From positions 593,902-657,901 of the forward strand of contig CP129472.1 in NCBI GenBank assembly GCA_030583725.1: a stretch of DNA of 64,000 bases. The letters are read 5' to 3'. Made by a program: the position numbers and the translations under genes. This document shows, in pieces, positions 6,139 to 40,285 of the stretch (positions within the stretch are counted from its first letter, which is position 1; each line of letters starts with the position of its first letter). The stretch comes from a bacterium (GTDB lineage: Bacteria > Patescibacteriota > Microgenomatia > UBA8517). The notes beneath the pieces were generated by a model. That model searched no databases. It had not been told where the DNA came from and saw only the letters and a list, made by a program, of their open reading frames with translations.

Positions 6139-6199
6139 TTGCCGTATTCTAGCCAGTGTGTGTGTGTGATTGTCAAGATTAAGGTGATATTATTAAATA

Positions 6200-7180
6200 A
6201 TGAAACTATTATCTTCACTTAAAGAAGCAGATTTAGCTGGTAAGAGAGTAATTGTTAGGGGAGACTTGGATATTACTGACTTTTCTGAAAATGATATTAG
6301 ACTCCAAAGGCTTGTTCCAACTGTAAAATTTTTGCTTGAAAATAAAGCTACTGTTATTTTAATTGGCCATATTGGTAGGCCTGATGGCAAAGCTGAAGAA
6401 AAGTATAGCTTGAAGCAACTTCAGCCTATTTTAGAGAAAATGATTGGAACAAATGAGGGTTGGGAACTCAAGGAAAATTTAAGGTTTGATCCTAGAGAAG
6501 AACAAAATGATGAAAGTTTTGCAAAAGAATTATCTAGTTTGGGTGATATTTATGTAAATGAAGCTTTTAGTGTATCTCACAGAAAACATGCTTCAATTGT
6601 AGGAATTCCTAAGTTTTTACCTTCCTATGCTGGTCTAAATCTCGAAAATGAAATTATGAATCTAAGTAAAGTCTTTGAACCCATTAGACCGCTTGTAATC
6701 TTAATTAGTGGAACTAAAGATGACAAATTAACAATGATTGAACCATTGTCAAACTTGGCAGACAAGGTTTTAGTCGGGGGAAGACTACCAGACTTGTTGG
6801 GGGATAAAGGTTTGGAAAGCATACGTTTGCAGGGAGATGGCAGAAAGGTTTTAATAGGCAACTTGATAATGGATAAAGAAGATATAACCTTAAATACAAT
6901 TGATATTTTTTCAAACGAAGTAATGAAAGCAAAAACTGTAGTTTTGGCTGGTGTTTTAGGTAGATATGAAGATGAGGGCCATAGCCAAGGGACAAGAAAA
7001 GTATTTACGGCAGTTGCAAACTCAAAAGCTTTTAAGATAGTTGGTGGTGGGGACAGTTTAAATGCTATCAATAAATATGGTTTAACAGACAAGTTTGATT
7101 GGGTGTCAGTAGGGGGTGGGGCAATGCTAGAGTTTTTGACCAAAAAAACACTTCCAGGTATTGAAGCACTTCAAAATTAA
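6200..7180 (+). CDS. pgk: phosphoglycerate kinase (compact form)
   Basis: GKRVIVRGDLD, IGHIGRP and a C-terminal GGGDS...GGGAMLEF motif match PGK. At 326 aa it is shorter than a typical PGK. Confidence 0.75.
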   Translation: MKLLSSLKEADLAGKRVIVRGDLDITDFSENDIRLQRLVPTVKFLLENKATVILIGHIGRPDGKAEEKYSLKQLQPILEKMIGTNEGWELKENLRFDPREEQNDESFAKELSSLGDIYVNEAFSVSHRKHASIVGIPKFLPSYAGLNLENEIMNLSKVFEPIRPLVILISGTKDDKLTMIEPLSNLADKVLVGGRLPDLLGDKGLESIRLQGDGRKVLIGNLIMDKEDITLNTIDIFSNEVMKAKTVVLAGVLGRYEDEGHSQGTRKVFTAVANSKAFKIVGGGDSLNAINKYGLTDKFDWVSVGGGAMLEFLTKKTLPGIEALQN

Positions 7181-29335: not shown

Positions 29336-29530
29336 GGCCCGGTAACTCAGTGGTCAGAGTACCGTCCTTATGGTAGAAAATTTGGGCGCATAGCTCAGTG
29401 GTTAGAGCATCGATCTTATAAGTCGAGGGTCCTTGGTTCAAATCCAAGTGCGCCCACCAAATTTTCAGACAGACAGCGTACAAACACAGTCATAAGACGG
29501 GAGTCGATGGTTCGAGCCCATCCCGGGCCA
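29336..29530 (+). tRNA. tRNA gene interrupted in the anticodon loop by a 122-bp insert (exons 29336-29372 and 29495-29530)
   Basis: Perfect 7-bp acceptor stem GGCCCGG/CCGGGCC, D-arm ACTC/GAGT, anticodon stem CCGTC/GACGG, T-arm GATGG-TTCGAGC-CCATC. The anticodon is TAT if the insert lies at 37/38, or CAT if at 32/33. Confidence 0.6.
29384..29459 (+). tRNA. tRNA with TAT anticodon (Ile-UAU-like), CCA encoded, lying inside the insert of the outer tRNA
   Basis: Acceptor GGGCGCA/TGCGCCC, D-arm GCTC-AGTGGTTA-GAGC, anticodon stem TCGAT/GTCGA with loop CTTATAA, T-arm CTTGG-TTCAAAT-CCAAG. Confidence 0.8.
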
Positions 29531-30775: not shown

Positions 30776-31639
30776 TTAAAGCTCGATTAAGGTTTGTTTT
30801 TTACCAGACTCATTAATATTTGCGAGTTTCAAATATCTTTCTGTGGTTGATAGTCTTTTGTGTCCTGATACTTGAGAAATTAAAATTAAGTCAACTCCAT
30901 TTTTGATGTTTTCCACAATGAAAGTAGTTCTTAAGTCGTTTACAGAATACTTTGGTAGCTCTGCTTTTTGAATAAACCTATCAACAGTTGCTCTGATGTT
31001 TCTGACAGCTAGAGGTTTACCTGTTTTACTTATAAACACATAATCTGAATCTACTTTTGGCCTATCTACAAGATACTTATTTAAAGCATCTTTTGCAGGT
31101 TTATTTAAAGGAATAACTCTTTCTGGTTGGGTTGCATATCCCTCAATTTTTAAAGTTTCTTCTTTTAAATCATCTGTTTTTATATTTGCAACTTCAGAGA
31201 TTCTCAAACCGGCCTGCAAAATGAGCTCAATCATGGCTGAAATTCTTGAATCAGTTTTAACTACGTCACGAAGAGCTCTGTATTCAAGCGGAGTTAAAAA
31301 CTTAGGCATAGATGATTCCACTTTAGGGTGGGTTACACTTTTTGAAATATCTTCTACTAGGTAGTTGCTTTCAACCATCCACCTAAAGAAAGTTTTAACA
31401 GCATTTAATTTTCTAGATACAGATTTAGGTGTAAATTTTTGTGCCAAAAGTGCATCTCTAAAAATATCCAAATCCTTAGACTTAACTTTACTGGGCTCGG
31501 AAATATTATTCTTTGTTAAAAATTCCAATAACTGATCAAGGTCTGATCTGTAGGCTAAAGTTGTAGCCGGAGATCTACCTTTTTCGTGTAAACTTGATAT
31601 AAATTTGGGTAGTAAACTTTTAATACTTTCTTGTGTCAT
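30776..31639 (-). CDS. tyrosine recombinase (XerC/XerD-like)
   Basis: 287 aa. C-terminal catalytic region has R...HKRLSTTERYLK (His and Tyr) and an N-terminal SAM-like domain. Confidence 0.8.
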   Translation of the reverse strand: MTQESIKSLLPKFISSLHEKGRSPATTLAYRSDLDQLLEFLTKNNISEPSKVKSKDLDIFRDALLAQKFTPKSVSRKLNAVKTFFRWMVESNYLVEDISKSVTHPKVESSMPKFLTPLEYRALRDVVKTDSRISAMIELILQAGLRISEVANIKTDDLKEETLKIEGYATQPERVIPLNKPAKDALNKYLVDRPKVDSDYVFISKTGKPLAVRNIRATVDRFIQKAELPKYSVNDLRTTFIVENIKNGVDLILISQVSGHKRLSTTERYLKLANINESGKKQTLIEL

Positions 31640-32035: not shown

Positions 32036-32051
32036 GTCACTTATTTTTTGT

Positions 32052-32125
32052 GTGCCAGCGACTGGATTCGAACCAGTGACCTGTCGCTTATGAAACGACC
32101 GCTACTAACCACTGAGCTACGCTGG
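32052..32125 (-). tRNA. tRNA with CAT anticodon (Met or Ile2)
   Basis: Reverse complement reads GCCAGCG-TA-GCTCAGTGGTTAGTAGC-G-GTCGT-TTCATAA-GCGAC-AGGTC-ACTGG-TTCGAAT-CCAGT-CGCTGGC-A. CCA is not encoded. Confidence 0.8.
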
Positions 32126-32372
32126 CCTGAAGTTGTATTGTACCAAAATTTGAGTCAGTATTCAGCTTTGTGTTACAATAGCTTTGTTCTTGAAATTTAA
32201 AAAATAATTTCATATGTGCGGGGTAGTGTACAGTGCACGCGAGGCTTGAGAAATTGGGCCACATTAAAAGAAATTTTAAATGTGAAACTTGGCTATATCG
32301 GGGAACGCCTAAAAATTTAGGTCAATCCCGAGGGAAGTTGAAATAACCCCCTAGAGACTACACGCCGAGCCC

Positions 32373-34178
32373 TCAGAGATGAGGTGAAGATATAGTCCGA
32401 CACTCTAAGTAATTAGAGATTACAGATCGCATAATCTCGCAGGCTGGGCGCAACTCCCAGCCCCGCAACAAGAAGGGAATTGAGGAAAACTTTTCCTCCA
32501 AAAGAGCCTGATTTTCGGGCTCTTTTTTGGGTTCAACCGCCTTTGCGATGATAGGTGCTATTTTTTTCATCTCCTTAATCTTAATGAGATACTTTGGGGC
32601 GTCAAATTGGACTTTTCTATCGTGCAAAGTTAGGTGCAACCCTAAACCTGTAAAAATATCCCGTTTAATTTTTAGGTCATCTCCTGCAAATCTTTCTTTG
32701 GCTCTTGAGGCAAATGTAAAGGCCTTCTCAGTTTGGTCGTTGGCCTGAATCATCCTACCGTCTGTGTCTACCAACTGCTTTTCAAGCCCCTTTAGTTCAA
32801 TTTCAAGCTTCGTTTTCTTGTTTTTATATTCTTCATCACTTAATACCTCTCCGTTTTTATTCATTGGCGATATTTTTAAATGAAGAAGATTGTCCAATTG
32901 TATTCTGATATTGTCGTGCGTACTTTTAATGTTTTTAATAGTATCTTCTCTAAAATCTCTCTCTGTTGTATTTTCTTTTAAAATTTGCTTAATTGCCCAA
33001 TTCATAAAGGCTGGCGAAATATCAATATCTGTTAAAAAATCATCTATTTGTTCCTCAAGTTTTTTAAGGGTTACAGATTTCTCCCCACATTGAGGATTTT
33101 TCTTTTTTCCACACCTGTAATAGGTATAGTGAAGCATTTTAGGGTCGGCCATATTGTGAATCAAAGTCCCGCAATGGATACATTTATCCTTATTCTTCTT
33201 AGTAATTGAAAACTTTTCTTTACAATTTGAGCATATACATTGCCATTTTTCCTCTCCGACTATGGAGGAATCACAAGAGGCACAATGTACAAGGCTTCCT
33301 GTATAAGCAAATTGATGTCCTTGAAGTTTATATTGACTACGTCTACCTAGTTTAATTTGAATCTCGTTAAAGGTACTTTCTGATACCATAGCCTCATATT
33401 CTCCCTTGTACCACACACCGCTTTTGAGTGGATATTCAAACTTGCCACAGTAAAAAGGGTTTGAAAGAATACGGTAAATCATACTTATAGAAAGCGGTTT
33501 ACCACCGCTTCTTTTCTTTGGTCTTGTTCTAAAACCCCAATCGTCTTTGGCAAGCCTATGGATTTCATTTACAGGCGTACCATTTTGAAACAACTCAAAT
33601 ATCCGTTTAACTGGCTCAAACCTTTCAGAATCAACTAAGATACGCCTGTTGCCACTTTCTGTTGTCTTATCGTTCAAATAGCCTTGCGGAGCAACTCCTG
33701 GCCTGAAGCCACCTCTACATTTCTTCACGAGTCCTCTTGTAACAGCAATTGATTTGTCATCACTATCTTTTTTGGATATGCTGAATTCGAGACTGAGCAT
33801 AAACTTGTCCTCTGGTGTGTTGTGATATGCTCTGCTTGGCGTTTTTATTTCAACCAACTTATTTCTATCTATTAAATCAATTATTTTCCCACCATCAACC
33901 ATATTTCGGGCTAGTCTATTTAAGTGCCAAGTTAGAATTGCGTTAGCCTCTCCAGCCTCTAGTTTGTTAATCATCACTTCAAACAGTTCACGACCTTTTT
34001 CGTGTGCTGATTTTGATTCTTGAAGTACTTCTATAATGTTTAAATTGTACCTAGTTTTTACGCCTTCAATTATAAAAACTTGGTCATCTAGGCTTGCCAC
34101 CTGTCTGTCTCTGTTATCCTCCGAACTCTTACGGACATAGCCTATGTATTTAAGATTGCTTAGCTGATTTTCTTCCAT
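32373..34178 (-). CDS. large serine recombinase (resolvase-domain integrase)
   Basis: N-terminal YVRKSSEDNRDRQVASLDDQ resolvase catalytic motif (the Ser lies in RKSS). Large C-terminal recombinase and zinc-ribbon region with multiple CxxC. The ORF 3' end reads across the left 18-bp repeat. Confidence 0.85.
   Translation of the reverse strand: MEENQLSNLKYIGYVRKSSEDNRDRQVASLDDQVFIIEGVKTRYNLNIIEVLQESKSAHEKGRELFEVMINKLEAGEANAILTWHLNRLARNMVDGGKIIDLIDRNKLVEIKTPSRAYHNTPEDKFMLSLEFSISKKDSDDKSIAVTRGLVKKCRGGFRPGVAPQGYLNDKTTESGNRRILVDSERFEPVKRIFELFQNGTPVNEIHRLAKDDWGFRTRPKKRSGGKPLSISMIYRILSNPFYCGKFEYPLKSGVWYKGEYEAMVSESTFNEIQIKLGRRSQYKLQGHQFAYTGSLVHCASCDSSIVGEEKWQCICSNCKEKFSITKKNKDKCIHCGTLIHNMADPKMLHYTYYRCGKKKNPQCGEKSVTLKKLEEQIDDFLTDIDISPAFMNWAIKQILKENTTERDFREDTIKNIKSTHDNIRIQLDNLLHLKISPMNKNGEVLSDEEYKNKKTKLEIELKGLEKQLVDTDGRMIQANDQTEKAFTFASRAKERFAGDDLKIKRDIFTGLGLHLTLHDRKVQFDAPKYLIKIKEMKKIAPIIAKAVEPKKEPENQALLEEKFSSIPFLLRGWELRPACEIMRSVISNYLECRTISSPHL
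32452..32469. repeat. left copy of 18-bp direct repeat (putative att core)
   Basis: Exact match to 38305-38322. GC-rich in an AT-rich background. Confidence 0.7.
32503..32528 (+). terminator. rho-independent terminator
   Basis: AGAGCC-TGATTTTCG-GGCTCT followed by a TTTTTT run. Confidence 0.6.
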
Positions 34179-34280
34179 ATTTTAAAATTCAAAAGGCCAT
34201 CCAAGTTGTACTCAATCAGAATCGCTTCAGATTGTCTTAGATGGCCATTAAAATAGCGATTCCTAAAGATTGAGTACCCT

Positions 34281-34469
34281 TTAATTTTGTATCTGATTGT
34301 TTATGTTGTCAATAGTCTTTGAGTAAGGCAAATTTTGTCCATATACGGCTTTTACTAGACCAATAAGGCTAGAGCTATAACCTAAAGCTTGTTCATCTGT
34401 TAGTGAAACTCCAAATTCTTTAAAATAGAGTTTCTTAAATTCTTCTAAGGCTTCGGATTGTAATGTCAT
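34281..34469 (-). CDS. small hypothetical protein (element cargo)
   Basis: 62-aa ORF, one of a run of overlapping minus-strand small genes. Confidence 0.3.
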   Translation of the reverse strand: MTLQSEALEEFKKLYFKEFGVSLTDEQALGYSSSLIGLVKAVYGQNLPYSKTIDNINNQIQN

Positions 34470-34690
34470 TCCTCCTCCCTAAAGGCTTCAAAAGCCTGAA
34501 ACAATTCTTGTTTGTTGTTATAAATTCCTTCATTTTTAAGACCATCGCTATAAGTAAATTTCAAGTACACAGAAATATCGTTATTTTGGAATTTTATCGT
34601 GCGTAAGTTATTTAAAAAACGTCTGGAAAGATGAGTGGAGCACTTATCCATCGTTTTGTTATTTTTAGTTACTTTGTAAAAATAATTCAT
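34466..34690 (-). CDS. small hypothetical protein (element cargo)
   Basis: 74 aa, overlaps its neighbours by 4 bp. Confidence 0.3.
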   Translation of the reverse strand: MNYFYKVTKNNKTMDKCSTHLSRRFLNNLRTIKFQNNDISVYLKFTYSDGLKNEGIYNNKQELFQAFEAFREEE

Positions 34691-35175
34691 ATCTGCATTT
34701 TCTTTTTAAGTTCTGCTATTTTCTTACCAAGTTCATCTCCACTCATAATTTTTGTTAGTTCTTGTGTTTCATTATCAGATTTCTTAATCTCAATATTATT
34801 TTTATATTTACTTTGATATTTAGTGGGTTCACTACTGACCCAAACCTTGGGTTTATCTGTAGTCCAAGTTGGGCTTCTAAGTGACCCAGATAGCCTCAAT
34901 TTCCTTCGTTCTCTTTGTTTGCTCTTGTTGGTTAGGAGATAACCCATCGAAGTTGCCTCATCAATTGCTTTACTGGCTGTATTTTTGCCGATACCCAAGT
35001 CACCAGCCATCTTTCTTTCTGAAACACACCACCCTTCGTCATCTGAGCGATAAAGAAACAGATTAAAGATAACCGCCTTTGTATTTGTCGAGATACTAGG
35101 ATTTCTCCAAAGACCTTTCCAATTTTTGAAAAATAATTTCCACTTTTCTTTTTGTTTAATATCTATTTCTTTCAT
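34687..35175 (-). CDS. phage-like winged-helix DNA-binding protein
   Basis: wHTH-like segment VSERKMAGDLGIGKNTASKAIDEATSMGYL and a basic C-terminus. Confidence 0.35.
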   Translation of the reverse strand: MKEIDIKQKEKWKLFFKNWKGLWRNPSISTNTKAVIFNLFLYRSDDEGWCVSERKMAGDLGIGKNTASKAIDEATSMGYLLTNKSKQRERRKLRLSGSLRSPTWTTDKPKVWVSSEPTKYQSKYKNNIEIKKSDNETQELTKIMSGDELGKKIAELKKKMQI

Positions 35176-35425
35176 ATTTATTTTTATCCTTCATCTCGAA
35201 AACCCTATCTCTGTAGGTTTCAACAGCGTCTAATAAGTCTTTTGGTTGAACAGGTGGGGCAGTTTTACTTATAAATGCGTTTGCTAGACTTATACATTTG
35301 TCTTCAGGAGAGAATTGGAAGTAAAGTGTGTATCCTTCTTCAGATGTACCCAAGAAAGATACCTCTGACTGTGTCAGAAGAAATGGAGCAATTTGTTTAT
35401 CCTTTGTCTTATAGATATTATTCAT
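35156..35425 (-). CDS. small hypothetical protein (element cargo)
   Basis: 89-aa ORF. Confidence 0.3.
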   Translation of the reverse strand: MNNIYKTKDKQIAPFLLTQSEVSFLGTSEEGYTLYFQFSPEDKCISLANAFISKTAPPVQPKDLLDAVETYRDRVFEMKDKNKYERNRY

Positions 35426-35443
35426 AATTCATATTTAAAGCAC

Positions 35444-35476
35444 AAAAAAAGACAGGGGTTTATATTTCCCTCTGTC
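35444..35476 (-). terminator. rho-independent terminator (minus strand)
   Basis: Hairpin GACAGGGG...CCCTCTGTC. An A7 run on the plus strand gives a U-run after the hairpin on the minus strand. Confidence 0.5.
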
Positions 35477-35702
35477 TGTACGTTGTCGCTTAGACTATCG
35501 GTAGGTAGTGCTCAAATCTTTACCTAAACTATCTTATTCCTAACAGAACCCTTTAGTTGAATCAAGTGTCTAAAACTATATCAATCTATATCAATTGAAT
35601 TTTGATATTGTGGCTAATTATTTTAATTTCCTATTTGACCAACTTTATTAAAATTACATTATTTTTATTTTATTTTCTTTGAGGCTGGTTAGGTTCAATC
35701 AT

Positions 35703-36251
35703 TTACCATCGTACGTCCTCTGGTAGATTTGGGTACATATCTTGTGTAGATTTTTCTGTACAAACCAGTTCTAGCTTATCATCAACTATTTTGTAATATT
35801 CCCTTGTTTGCTCCGCATATACTGGCTCTAAGACTAAGTAGCTACCTTCATTAAGCAAAATGTAGCTAGGATTAGCTGGTCTATAAGCGATAACCTTCCC
35901 AGTTTCTACATTTGTGACAGCGAATGACGCACAGTCAGTGCCACAGCCCAAAATGGCCAAGCTGTAACGCTCAGCAAAGTTTACCCCCCTTTCTGCTGTT
36001 TCTGTAATTCTTGTATAATGCCTCTTTGCCTCTGGGAGGTCTGAAAAATCAATAGGTTTGGGAACGCCATTATATTCGTCAACATCACTATTAGAGGCTT
36101 CTAATTCTTTTTGGCAAGTACTTTGAATATCTTGGATTGTGTCTTGGCTCTCTCCCTTATCCTTAACTGACCAAAACAAATAGATAGCTAAAAGAATATA
36201 TGGAACTAACAGAATGTAAAAAAGGAGTTTGTAAATATTAAATTTATTCAC
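35703..36251 (-). CDS. exported hypothetical protein
   Basis: N-terminal TM/signal segment and several Cys. Confidence 0.35.
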   Translation of the reverse strand: MNKFNIYKLLFYILLVPYILLAIYLFWSVKDKGESQDTIQDIQSTCQKELEASNSDVDEYNGVPKPIDFSDLPEAKRHYTRITETAERGVNFAERYSLAILGCGTDCASFAVTNVETGKVIAYRPANPSYILLNEGSYLVLEPVYAEQTREYYKIVDDKLELVCTEKSTQDMYPNLPEDVRW

Positions 36252-36469
36252 TTTGTATATTTAAAACCATAAAGTACCCAACTACAGTAATTATAAGGTT
36301 TTTCAAGGCCAGATGGTTTAAACCAAAACGTGCTTTTGGCTTTTTCTTTTTCCACTTCACTATAGAAATTTTTACAACGAGAAATCTCTTGCTGTCTAAG
36401 TATCAAAAATAAAGTAATTAATAAACCAAAAATTAAAATCTTTAGTAATGACTTTTGAAATTTGGTCAT
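36248..36469 (-). CDS. small membrane protein
   Basis: 73 aa with one TM helix. Overlaps the downstream gene by 4 bp. Confidence 0.3.
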   Translation of the reverse strand: MTKFQKSLLKILIFGLLITLFLILRQQEISRCKNFYSEVEKEKAKSTFWFKPSGLEKPYNYCSWVLYGFKYTK

Positions 36470-36574
36470 AACTTATGGTAACTCCTTGTTACTCCATTTT
36501 CAAGTTTACTTACGAGGCTAAATAGTAACAATGTGTGGGTTTAGTTTGAATCTACTTCTTGATAACTTCATTTA

Positions 36575-36787
36575 ATGATAACCAAGAAAGATTTGAAATT
36601 AGCCAAAACTATTAAGAAATATAGAAAAATAGCAGATTTAACCCAACAAGAATTGGGAGATAAGGTTGGGGTTACACAAAAATATATCCAATATCTAGAG
36701 TCTGCAAACAGAACACCAAGCCTAAAAGTGTTACGCAAAATTGCCCAATCACTAAATATAAAATCCTCAGATTTGAACCTTCTTTAA
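36575..36787 (+). CDS. XRE-family helix-turn-helix transcriptional regulator
   Basis: LTQQELGDKVGVTQKYIQYLESANRTPSLKVLRKIAQSL is a canonical HTH_3 segment. Confidence 0.75.
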   Translation: MITKKDLKLAKTIKKYRKIADLTQQELGDKVGVTQKYIQYLESANRTPSLKVLRKIAQSLNIKSSDLNLL

Positions 36788-37046
36788 AATACATCCTATA
36801 ATCTTGACAAATGGCTATTTCAGTGATATAGTGTTTTTAGAAATTTAGAGAAATCACAGGTTCATTTGCACCTAGCCATTTCTCTTTTTTTATTTAGTAT
36901 CTTGTACTTTAAAATTGCGAAAAGTTGATTCTCTTTTGAACCTTGAGTGGGTAGCTCCTTGGGTATTAGTTTAATTACTCGTACCTAAAGAGCTAACCCA
37001 TTCGGGATAGTGAACTAAAAAATCATTAATTCAAAGGAGATATGAA

Positions 37047-37367
37047 ATGACACAACAGAAACCCCGTAAGGAAGATGGTCTCGACCTGTTTATGCGTGCA
37101 CTTGGCACCAACGACGGCGGACGCGCGATTATGGACCAAGAATTGGCTGGCCAGCAATCGTTCGTTTCAAGCACCACCCTTCCGACCGACCTGCGCGGAA
37201 AAGAAATTCTCGAGGCCGCTGGCGTCAAGTTCCTCGGAGTCGTCGATGACGATGACATTTTCCAGTACGTGGAACTGCCAGAGGGATGGAAGAAGGTTCC
37301 GACAGACCATTCTATGTGGTCAAATCTCGTTGATGGCGCTGGTCGCATCTGGGCAAATTTTCTATAA
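37047..37367 (+). CDS. hypothetical protein in a GC-rich (foreign-composition) segment
   Basis: Strong RBS AAAGGAGAT. GC content is far above its surroundings. The overlapping ORFs on other frames (37075-37425, 37031-37399) are probably GC artefacts. Confidence 0.4.
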   Translation: MTQQKPRKEDGLDLFMRALGTNDGGRAIMDQELAGQQSFVSSTTLPTDLRGKEILEAAGVKFLGVVDDDDIFQYVELPEGWKKVPTDHSMWSNLVDGAGRIWANFL

Positions 37368-37644
37368 GGCCGCCTTTTACGACCGCAGTGCTCACGCAAG
37401 TGCCAGCAAGCCCGAAAACGAATAGGTCAACACCCGCAATAAAGAAATACAAGATTAGCCCGACGCTGACTATAAAGGAGGATTTTCTCTCTTTTAAAAA
37501 TCAATAGTGTCGGGCTTTTCTTTGCCTAAAATTATTTTTTAAAATTTTTGAATTAATGAATGTGAATCTATATCAAAAGTAATCGACAATACATAATACA
37601 TAAAGTTTCTTGAGTTCTATACCCCCCTTTGTTACGGAAAATTT

Positions 37645-38241
37645 GTGCACGAAGTGATAAAATATGGAAAGAAATCAATAACAATGACGTCGGATATTAA
37701 AAATAAAGTTTTGCCAGCCTATAAGGAGTTAAAAGGCCTTCTTGCACAAGCTCCTCAAACTGAGAAAATACCAAATATCCATCAACCTGAGTTGTGGAAC
37801 AGAACAAACAGTTTAATCACAGAGCTTGTTCAAATAACAGACAATAATAGATTTGACGAATATAAATTAAACACTAAATTTGGATATAATCACGAGCCGT
37901 ATGTCCCAACTGATACATACAGAGGTATGTTAAATGCTTTGATTATGAGATTACAGGGAGAATATTCACTTGAACCGCAAGACCCTTTTGGAGGTAGTCC
38001 ATCTACGATATTAAACCAAACTCAAACTCAAAATACTAATGTTCAAATTCTTGTACAACTTGGTATGGATTTACAACAAGCTATGAGTAAGACAGAGAAT
38101 GATAATGAAAAATCATTTATTGAAAAGATTAAAGAAAAAATCGGAGAGATAAAAAGCTATGTTGAGTTTGCTAATTTAATTGTTTCTCTAGCAATTCAGT
38201 CTGGAATAACACTTGAGAGATTAAAAACACTATTTTCTTAA
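37645..38241 (+). CDS. hypothetical protein (element cargo)
   Basis: 198 aa, no family recognised. The track start codon is non-ATG. Confidence 0.35.
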   Translation: MHEVIKYGKKSITMTSDIKNKVLPAYKELKGLLAQAPQTEKIPNIHQPELWNRTNSLITELVQITDNNRFDEYKLNTKFGYNHEPYVPTDTYRGMLNALIMRLQGEYSLEPQDPFGGSPSTILNQTQTQNTNVQILVQLGMDLQQAMSKTENDNEKSFIEKIKEKIGEIKSYVEFANLIVSLAIQSGITLERLKTLFS

Positions 38242-38304
38242 GCCCATTACCTTAAGTCAGGTATGAATATAGGCTCAGATAGGCCTAAAAAGTAATTTCT
38301 GATT

Positions 38305-38322
38305 AACTCCCAGCCCCGCAAC
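38305..38322. repeat. right copy of 18-bp direct repeat (putative att core)
   Basis: Exact match to 32452-32469. Confidence 0.7.
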
Positions 38323-39651: not shown

Positions 39652-39912
39652 ATGAATATTTATCCTAAGGCATTTAGCGCTACTGAGCTCAAAACCAATC
39701 CTTCTGAGATTTTAAACCTTGCTGTCTACGGAGGATATGAAGTGATGATAGAAAAGTATGGTGTGGAAATAGCAAAAGTAGTTCCTGTTAAAAAAACTAT
39801 AAAAAGAACCGATTATAAAGATATTTTGAAAAAATACGCTGGAAGTATCCCAGATTTTCCTGATGTTACTTCCTTTAGAAGGAACAGAAAATATGTCAAA
39901 ATATTTGATTGA
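39652..39912 (+). CDS. type II antitoxin (Phd/YefM- or VapB-like)
   Basis: 86 aa, overlaps the downstream PIN gene, and is preceded by a palindromic operator. Confidence 0.55.
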   Translation: MNIYPKAFSATELKTNPSEILNLAVYGGYEVMIEKYGVEIAKVVPVKKTIKRTDYKDILKKYAGSIPDFPDVTSFRRNRKYVKIFD

Positions 39913-40285
39913 TACAAATATTTTTGTTGATTTATTAAGAGATAATTTAGATATACAGAATTTTTCAGTCAAAGGCGATTTGGCAACTTGTTCAATTACT
40001 TTATGCGAATTGTATTACGGAGCTGAAAAAACATCCAAACCTAGTAGCTCAATAGAGGGAATTGAAAGTTTGACCAAGGATTTAAACTTGAGAATTCTAG
40101 ATTTTGACGAGAATACAAGTAAAATATTTGCCAAAATTAAAATAGAATTAGAAAAGATTGGTCAGAGGTTGGAGGATTTTGATTTAATGATTGCAGCGAC
40201 GGCAATCCAAAACGATATGGTTCTGGTGACGAACAACTTAAAACATTTTAAGAGAATAAAAGGTTTAAAAATATGGACACAATAA
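39893..40285 (+). CDS. vapC: PIN-domain toxin VapC
   Basis: An internal start gives MSKYLIDTNIFVDLL. The conserved acidic residues of the PIN fold are present. Confidence 0.75.
   Translation: MSKYLIDTNIFVDLLRDNLDIQNFSVKGDLATCSITLCELYYGAEKTSKPSSSIEGIESLTKDLNLRILDFDENTSKIFAKIKIELEKIGQRLEDFDLMIAATAIQNDMVLVTNNLKHFKRIKGLKIWTQ

Follow-up and report, generated by a model that had tools for sequence, protein, structure and literature searches.

How an element bounded by two identical 18-bp direct repeats came to be inserted in a chromosome of the Microgenomatia, and which enzyme put it there, is the question raised by a locus in contig CP129472.1 (assembly GCA_030583725.1, lineage UBA8517), of which positions 593,902 to 657,901 were analysed as a single stretch of 64,000 nucleotides (nt), the window, to which all coordinates below refer. 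A first-pass annotation of the window had recognized the repeats as anonymous GC-rich 18-mers, had noticed that the large serine recombinase (LSR) between them reads through its own attachment (att) site, and had seen a paradox in the coexistence of a long repeat, typical of tyrosine integrases, with a serine recombinase. We are confident that the segment 32470-38322 (5,853 bp repeat-to-repeat) represents an integrative element of Microgenomates/Patescibacteria that lies in the 3' end of an initiator-like, intron-bearing tRNA(CAU) gene, and that the LSR is most likely responsible for the insertion. Sequence comparison further shows that the attachment site of the element lies within the recombinase gene itself, such that each integration event replaces the conserved end of the enzyme that made it.

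The repeat AACTCCCAGCCCCGCAAC occurs exactly at 32452-32469 and 38305-38322 on the forward strand, with no third copy in the window even when up to three mismatches are allowed. The chance expectation is 0.01 matches, two copies were obtained in none of 100 shuffles, and the identity between the two junctions stops at the 18 bp, as AAG follows the left copy while CA follows the right copy and completes an encoded CCA. The repeat was described correctly as a sequence, but it is not anonymous, since a tRNA(CAU) gene split by an intron ends with it, and this accounts for its GC-richness and its length. Because the 18-mer is a tRNA 3' end, the two copies form a classical attL/attR pair of a tRNA gene. 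The attL identity block (32452..32469, forward strand), which comprises the 3' half of the T-loop, the 3' strand of the T-stem, the acceptor 3' strand CCCCGCA, A73 and C74, completes the tRNA, and the attR identity block (38305..38322, forward strand), with the CA that follows it, is the original tRNA 3' end in displaced form.

The target gene is overlooked by standard tRNA finders, and ARAGORN misses it, because a group I intron interrupts it. The 5' exon (32217..32246, forward strand) contains the acceptor 5' strand TGCGGGG, a short D-arm and the anticodon stem and ends with U33, while the 3' exon (32430..32469, forward strand) contains CATAA, the anticodon stem, the variable loop, the T-arm CTGGG-CGCAACT-CCCAG, the acceptor strand CCCCGCA, A73 and C74. 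The intron between them (32247..32429, forward strand), which interrupts the anticodon loop at tRNA position 33/34, is 183 nt long, lacks an open reading frame (ORF), and has a U before its 5' splice site and a terminal G. The Rfam group I intron model RF00028 matches it at 32237-32419 with E 3e-19 and 79.2 bits, above the gathering score of 50. When the exons are spliced in silico at 32246|32430, the product folds as a cloverleaf of 72 nt and is recognized by ARAGORN as tRNA-Met(cat), and in the intron-less orthologues of loci L015 and L021 query positions 30 and 214 are joined directly, so that the exons abut at the same junction. Three other junction pairs accepted by ARAGORN, with Ala, Ile or Thr anticodons, were rejected, as only 32246|32430 fits both the U...G rule and the intron-less orthologues. 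The region 32217-32470 was initially guessed to be a tmRNA from its GGGG start and its T-arm/acceptor end, but neither ARAGORN nor Rfam finds a tmRNA at the locus, and Rfam gives the group I intron instead. Group I introns are known to insert at position 33/34 of tRNA-fMet, Patescibacteria included (PMC13011429), and with those of cyanobacteria and Patescibacteria the window intron shares the site, the U before the 5' splice site, the terminal G, the match to RF00028 and the absence of a homing endonuclease ORF, making it an ordinary member of that group.

A scan of metagenomes with the 18-mer yielded at least 120 contigs, and the tRNA counts that follow are drawn from the matches listed. The same tRNA is present in about 95 contigs among the 120 matches listed, the CGCAACT variant of the T-loop included. 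The intron is found in 36 of 54 distinct orthologous tRNA genes and is missing from the other 18, and the intron-bearing genes have total lengths of 247 to 413 nt. In many of the listed contigs a terminator or another tRNA directly follows the tRNA, and those sites are therefore empty. The anticodon stem shows compensatory changes among the listed tRNAs (TGAGG/TCTCA, CGAGG/TCTCG, GAAGG/TCTTC), and position 1, opposite A72, is U in 42 of the 54 orthologues and C in the remaining 12, the window having U1-A72. With its CAU anticodon, weak 1:72 pair, G2:C71, C3:G70 and A73, the tRNA resembles a bacterial initiator tRNA, and its acceptor GCGGGG/CCCCGC with A73 is identical to that of E. coli tRNA-fMet. 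It lacks the three consecutive G:C pairs of an initiator anticodon stem, as the stem is CGAGG/UCUCG with A29-U41, G30-C40 and G31-U39, and it is atypical in its 3-bp D-stem, its D-loop without GG, its T-loop CGCAACU instead of TTCRANY, and its U1-A72 pair. The CGCAACU loop recurs in at least 13 metagenome contigs and is thus a natural variant. Because the anticodon-stem G:C triplet is missing and the D-arm is short and without GG, initiator identity is only probable, and we prefer the term initiator-like. It should be noted that in at least 13 loci (L085, L092, L098, L106, L114, L118, L121, L138, L160, L173, L175, L179 and L202) the antisense end of a different gene (..NWKKWxKLF-stop) follows the same tRNA 3' end, and a second, unrelated element type probably uses this tRNA in those metagenome loci.

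The LSR ORF in the integrated state (32373..34178, reverse strand) encodes 601 residues, of which 1-576 come from the element and the core while the last 25 are antisense to the tRNA 3' exon and intron. Sequence and model together identify it as a member of the large serine recombinases, with a Resolvase domain (PF00239, E 1.7e-15, residues 12-152), a Recombinase domain (PF07508, E 5e-10, residues 189-279) after a long alpha-E helix, and a predicted zinc ribbon with an embedded coiled coil. Residues Y14, R16, S18, S19, R63, R88 and R91 are invariant in 37 sequences, the catalytic R16 and S18 forming the Arg-x-Ser motif, as are eight Cys at 299-364, and PF13408 is precomputed for some homologues. 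The AlphaFold model of the homologue P0030 has the LSR architecture, including the Recombinase domain, beta hairpins within residues 294-354 and a coiled coil, with helices spanning 386-433 and 445-496. Among solved structures, that of the SPbeta integrase (9dxh) is the best match, and no curated NCBIfam model reaches its cut-off, the CcrB model giving 64 bits against 900.

More than 100 close homologues (42-91% identity) are known, all from Microgenomates/Patescibacteria where the source is named, and 102 of the 120 closest share the C-terminal pattern ..SIPxLLRG.E...EIM, which in the window is the antisense translation of the tRNA from its acceptor end to its anticodon. Nearly all members abut the antisense strand of this tRNA in one orientation. 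We retrieved and compared 80 genomic loci of LSR homologues, and in their close clade the LSR gene ends antisense to the same tRNA, whether or not the latter has an intron. One lineage (L009, P0030) has the C-terminus ..SLCR.. and is located in a different, canonical tRNA. The LSR relatives in IMG/VR are all distant (≤41% identity) and show neither the tail nor the tRNA architecture, so that the close family is absent from it; its one match to the attP-junction pattern, L263, was set aside as a chance match. A practical consequence is that nearly all database C-termini of this LSR family are spurious, as they are derived from antisense tRNA.

The att sites themselves were resolved by comparison of related elements. 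A second copy of TTGCGGGG, which is the antisense of CCCCGCAA (tRNA nt 66-73), lies about 4-11 kb, or one element length, upstream of the LSR in 16 loci, and L261 and L262 add two. The comparison of attL and attR with these 18 related elements bears out the earlier statements that an integrated element is bounded by the repeats, that the serine recombinase reads through its own att site, and that its C-terminus changes upon excision. The attL-attR identity usually comprises only (G)TTGCGGGG, the family-wide block being about 8-10 bp, and a longer identity block is found only in the window, L003, L261 and L127. In L261 the long block has one mismatch, with T (host) in attL and C (element) in attR, which indicates that the extra CTGGGAGTT is the element's own attP arm and not duplicated host DNA. 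The LSR of L262 is 88% identical to that of the window, yet L262 has the family-typical arm ATTGGAAGAA. The length of 18 bp is therefore an extension by 9-10 bp within a sub-lineage, contributed by the attP arm of the element, and with this the paradox of a long repeat beside a serine integrase dissolves.

Mismatches that segregate between host and element at position 7 (L008, L016, L262), position 6 (L006) and position 1 (L019), together with the mismatch in L261, confine the exchange to TGCG. The crossover dinucleotide of a serine recombinase must be non-palindromic, and since TG (CA) is the sole non-palindromic dinucleotide in TGCG, the crossover is probably at C71-A72, that is, at 32466-32467 and 38319-38320. 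In the mechanism we propose, the LSR would make its 2-bp cut most likely at C71-A72, and the element would thus contribute only A73 onwards, namely the discriminator and the 3' trailer, leaving the tRNA intact and functional. The reconstructed attP junction reads ..TTTCTGATT-AACTCCCAGCCCCGCAAC-AAGAAGGG.. (k-mer TTTCTGATTAACTCCCAGCCCCGCAACAAGAAGGGAATTG) and the reconstructed attB junction reads ..GGCTGGGCGC-AACTCCCAGCCCCGCAAC-CAAATAAC.. (k-mer GGCTGGGCGCAACTCCCAGCCCCGCAACCAAATAACATAT).

Residues 570-576 of the LSR are encoded in the left repeat and 25 further codons lie beyond it, so the ORF crosses the repeat as the first-pass annotation had claimed, but its figure of about 30 codons was slightly too high. 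When the element ends are rejoined in silico, as in an excised circle, the LSR gene regains a detached 3' end (38247..38321, reverse strand) that reads LRGWEL-IRNYFLGLSEPIFIPDLR-stop, giving a protein of 594 residues in total that ends with ..LLRGWELIRNYFLGLSEPIFIPDLR and has a 21-residue tail, ..IRNYFLGLSEPIFIPDLR. Thus, attP is situated inside the LSR reading frame, where the codons for IP..LLRG and LEEIRTYF make up its two arms, and the circular form consequently encodes a conserved tail that is lost on integration. In the integrated form this tail is swapped for meaningless antisense-tRNA residues, 25 in the present case, and many relatives stop right after LRG.

On the attR side, in the strand and frame of the LSR, most elements encode L(E/Q)EIR(T/N)YFL....P(I/V)FIPDLR-stop. 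The tail from LRG to the stop is 24 codons long in the window, L003, L004, L006, L007, L008, L011, L016, L261 and L262, and this region is the sole block at the attR end that is conserved with L003, L127 and L020. Among 13 elements the ratio of nonsynonymous to synonymous changes (pN/pS) of the tail is 0.32 in the LSR frame, compared with 1.03 and 1.84 in the other two frames, and for the distal 12 codons, which are beyond any plausible attP arm, it is 0.45 compared with 0.98 and 1.54. Arg codons switch synonymously between CGA, AGA, AGG and CGC, and Leu codons between TTA, CTC, CTA and CTG. These patterns indicate conservation of the tail at the protein level under purifying selection. An exhaustive HMMER scan found the motif in the continuous ORFs of relatives at 31-40% identity, for example as ALLRGLNAIRTYF, RRGIVDDVRTYWMTKKEYFEIPDLR and LRGAIENVRTCY, with ..LRG..[IV]RTY[FW].. 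and even ..FEIPDLR, and the tail is thus an old and real part of this recombinase clade. In one of these relatives, P0183 (~35% identity; L264/L265, 10001-11848), the C-terminus ..ALLRGLNAIRTYF.. is intact and ATTCC-N-CTGCGGGG is retained in the DNA. The P0183 element, of 36-67 kb, encodes a DNA methyltransferase, a TrwB-like coupling protein, a relaxase, a tyrosine integrase and a 3,474-residue RHS/SpvB protein.

The uninterrupted attP form is represented by the database protein P0030 and by contig L002 (JGI Ga0438325_0014302), which shows the attP arrangement twice, 6.2 kb apart. At 1-170 and 6197-6362 this contig contains uninterrupted LSR 3' ends with slightly different tails (..SSSPVFIPDFR and ..SPTPAFIPDLR), each followed by unrelated DNA, and it is either an array of tandem units joined at attP-type junctions or the result of an assembly that ran through a pair of circular variants. 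A different arrangement is seen in the LSRs of L024 and L053 (33-50% identity), where the attP-form ORF stops directly after a 17-bp tRNA-derived repeat (..LRGVD-stop and ..LRDMD-stop) and the DNA beyond the stop is conserved between both elements (..GGCCGAACCGG.ATCAAAGATCCG..).

Several observations weigh against this account of the element and its tail. Contig L002 cannot be taken as a clean circular contig, as its terminal overlap is identical over 124 nt only and the rest is unrelated, and an attP-form protein occurs only once among the 120 closest homologues. A profile of the reconstructed C-termini run against the protein database recovered only fragments and one attR-side ORF (P0127). 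The tails are degenerate at about a third of the attR sites (L010, L014, L019, L025), and in the AlphaFold model of P0030 the tail has a predicted local distance difference test score (pLDDT) below 50, so that the model says nothing about what the tail does. Among the 120 metagenome matches listed for the 18-mer there is no attP and no matching attB, these searches gave neither an empty site for this exact host nor an excised circle of this exact element, and both contigs that carry the neighbouring tryptophanyl-tRNA synthetase (TrpRS), found by exact look-up, are occupied. In addition, no recombination directionality factor is identifiable in the element by homology, and the dyad symmetry around the proposed crossover extends to only 8.1 of 24 positions compared with about 6 expected, a signal that agrees with C71-A72 but is too weak to support it, so that the assignment to C71-A72 rests on the mismatch mapping and the non-palindrome argument.

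These points have to be set against what other explanations would require. That the two 18-mers arose by chance, or belong to a dispersed repeat, and mark no mobile element is virtually inconceivable, given that there are two copies only, that the shuffles never matched this, that the 18-mer is a tRNA 3' end, and that the same architecture is present in 18 other loci. A second alternative concerns the Phage_integrase-family gene (30776-31639) that lies 0.8 kb to the left of the element, as this Xer-like tyrosine recombinase could have made the insertion with the serine recombinase as a passenger. Long repeats derived from a tRNA typically point to a tyrosine integrase, and serine integrases have rarely been seen at tRNA genes. 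A 2020 survey found them at t(m)RNA genes in only 14 of 297 cases, called the specialisation of serine integrases on a tRNA gene unreported, and asked for proof (PMC7192596). The Xer-like gene, however, is outside the repeats, with DivIC and a tRNA-Met gene between, and its best matches are the XerC, XerD and XerA models. Of 18 related loci that have it together with DivIC, 8 have the pair on the side of the tRNA and 10 on the side of attR, and since its side thus varies from genome to genome, the gene does not belong to the element. The first-pass annotation had placed the Xer-like gene and the tRNA-Met correctly to the left of the element, but the gene is a host synteny partner of the tRNA and not an element gene. 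The locus does have the form of a tRNA-targeting element of the Islander type, with an intact tRNA gene at one end, a displaced 3' fragment at the other and a direct repeat, as do the 18 relatives, but the only recombinase between the repeats is the serine recombinase and there is no internal tyrosine integrase. Moreover, the constant neighbour of the tRNA is the LSR, and attP is written in LSR codons. We therefore give an Xer origin very little credence, and a tyrosine-recombinase origin is excluded for practical purposes. The comparative evidence that serine integrases can specialise on a tRNA gene is strong, as the family has more than 100 members and attL/attR pairs were resolved in 19 cases.

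An element inserted by its LSR could still be a fixed remnant that no longer moves, for example if the tail is missing from the chromosomal LSR and the full enzyme can no longer be supplied by a circle. The failure to find a circle or an empty site for this host, among the matches listed and the TrpRS contigs, would be in accordance with this, as would the frameshift in one of the cargo genes. On the other hand, attL and attR are perfect, the LSR ORF and its detached tail are intact and rejoin in frame, and the mismatch within the repeat of L261 points to a separate integration event. Relatives whose LSR is 88-93% identical differ from the window in their cargo and host flanks, indicative of recent movement or mosaic exchange. 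We consider immobility unlikely.

What the loss of the tail means for the enzyme is less clear-cut, and here we put forward a hypothetical role. The full-length, circle-encoded enzyme would perform the integration, while the tail-less chromosomal LSR would behave differently, being either weaker or altered in its directionality. A 62-residue ORF (34281..34469, reverse strand) is a conserved partner of the LSR and a candidate directionality factor or regulator. By tblastn it is present in 29 related loci, mostly directly upstream of the LSR gene and a few kb upstream in more distant ones, and it has no Pfam or PHROG match. Apart from the LSR, no other gene of the element is widely conserved. 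We tentatively suggest that the position of attP acts as a built-in state sensor, in that the tail made from the circle is needed for, or biases the enzyme toward, the attP x attB reaction, whereas the integrated enzyme differs in stability, partner binding or directionality and might, for example, excise only with its 62-residue partner. If so, directionality would be controlled in part by a recombination event that rewrites the recombinase, and we know of no serine integrase for which this has been shown. It is quite possible, and a view we take seriously, that the element is real but the read-through and the tail swap are a neutral by-product of the attP position with no regulatory role. 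The tail is predicted to be disordered, it is degenerate or shortened in the four elements listed above, and the more distant LSRs of L024 and L053 stop right after the core even in the attP form. For dsiB, the corresponding recombinase gene of Dehalococcoides, McMurdie et al. likewise name a 'trivial explanation' (PMC3146451). Neutrality is difficult to reconcile with the purifying selection in the LSR frame (pN/pS 0.32 versus 1.03 and 1.84), with the maintenance of tail length and stop position in more than 10 elements, and with the recurrence of the tail motifs in relatives at 31-40% identity, and it is unlikely that a selected peptide is removed by every integration without consequence.

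The remaining genes of the element are as the first-pass annotation had listed them: besides the recombinase, a run of small ORFs on the reverse strand, among them a winged helix-turn-helix (wHTH) protein, then an XRE regulator, a GC-rich ORF and a 198-residue ORF. The variable cargo ORFs of 74, 162, 89, 182 and 73 residues (34466..36469, reverse strand) include only one that recurs in other elements, that of 89 residues (6 loci). The 162-residue product is a wHTH protein with weak similarity to phage replication initiators (HTH_36, 22.6 bits, below the 25-bit cut-off). The XRE-family helix-turn-helix regulator (36575..36787, forward strand; 70 residues; Pfam HTH_3, E 3.4e-14) has counterparts in that an XRE gene is present in 11 related elements. 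Searches of the small ORFs against Pfam, PHROGs and NCBIfam found nothing beyond these two, and the element genes include no capsid, conjugation or recognizable replication genes apart from the wHTH protein. The GC-rich cargo gene (37047..37425, forward strand; 50% GC across 37000-37400), which is absent from L003, is frameshifted or truncated, as its 106-residue ORF overlaps a second frame of 116 residues and the two look like one frameshifted gene. NCBI QY322_03650 is the exact protein, and intact homologues of 124-128 residues are found in Woesebacteria, Uhrbacteria and other bacteria of the candidate phyla radiation. The 198-residue cargo ORF (37645..38241, forward strand) has no family match and no match in the related loci. 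In three relatives, two attR-type sites lie 1.0-2.4 kb apart upstream of a single LSR (L010 at 1423 and 2563, L014 at 4525 and 5528, and L019 at 3450 and 5827), so that recombinase-less units have been accreted in tandem.

The left flank of the element contains genes for UDP-glucose dehydrogenase, tRNA-Ile(UAU), the Xer-like recombinase, DivIC and tRNA-Met (32052-32126, reverse strand), and the right flank contains those for a small GIY-YIG protein, TrpRS, a Phd/PIN pair, a tRNA-binding protein and FtsH. The UAU anticodon of the tRNA-Ile (29384-29459, forward strand) is uncommon in bacteria, and an Rfam 'Plastid-ycf2' match on its antisense strand is weak, below threshold and spurious. The Phd/YefM antitoxin and PIN toxin genes (39652-40285, forward strand), between TrpRS and the tRNA-binding-domain protein, are absent from the aligned part of L003. 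When L003 is compared with the window (32051-38322), the block of tRNA-Met, intron-containing tRNA(CAU), element and attR is inverted between the same housekeeping flanks, and L261 and L127 show a different inversion that includes the GIY-YIG gene, while L262 has the window arrangement. These arrangements may reflect a hot spot of inversion or, alternatively, a pair of tRNA genes that flips.

The essence of the system proposed here is a compact integration module native to Patescibacteria, in which the 62-residue ORF and the LSR are accompanied by an attP within the gene and an attB within a conserved tRNA. To our knowledge there are almost no genetic tools for Patescibacteria. With the phage-type large serine integrases (phiC31, Bxb1, A118 and SprA/YokA of SPbeta) the LSR shares the domain set, the coiled coil, the short att sites and the presumed 2-bp crossover. 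The targets of those integrases are mostly protein-coding or intergenic and their attP is outside the int ORF, whereas here the target is a tRNA, attP is within the int ORF and there is no recognizable directionality factor. In the rewriting of a gene by integration, the element can be likened to two other systems. In SSV1-type archaeal tyrosine integrases (fuselloviruses, pTN3-like elements) attP is inside int, and integration into a tRNA gene splits int, which is intact only on the circle. There, however, a tyrosine recombinase in archaea is divided into two large inactive parts, whereas here detachment is limited to the last 21 codons and spares the catalytic and DNA-binding domains. In the integration-dependent immunity of mycobacteriophages, ascribed to Broussard et al. 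(2013), attP reportedly lies in a coding sequence such that integration alters the C-terminus and the behaviour of the product, but there a repressor is split and a degradation tag is lost, while here it is the recombinase itself that is split. On present analysis the element is a member of neither group.

The closest precedent is DsiB of the Dehalococcoides ssrA islands, where the LSR likewise lies beside attL and is encoded on the reverse strand, the island likewise occupies the 3' end of a t(m)RNA-type gene, which is present as a direct repeat of about 20 bp, the recombinase ORF always overlaps attL into the antisense of the RNA gene, as it does here, and islands accrete in tandem, a feature shared with the present family (PMC3146451). 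The target here is tRNA(CAU) and not tmRNA, of which none was found, and the proposed crossover is in the acceptor 3' strand and not in the T-loop. The element has no DsiA (a second, small serine recombinase) and no RecF-like, ParB or Mom genes, its LSR is only distantly CcrB-like (64 bits against the 900-bit cut-off), the elements are 4-10 kb in length, and the hosts are Patescibacteria. It is thus target, crossover position, module content, host phylum and recombinase lineage that set the present case apart. The authors of the dsiB study speculated that the gene is fully functional only on the circle, and they reported that part of DsiB as divergent (PMC3146451), whereas here the circle-specific tail is conserved and selected. 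The speculation of 2011 thereby becomes testable, as the conserved and selected circle-only piece allows tailed and tail-less enzymes to be compared directly for activity and directionality. Hence, the architecture has one published precedent, and what is new is the conserved circle-only tail together with the size and consistency of a family of elements that targets a tRNA gene.

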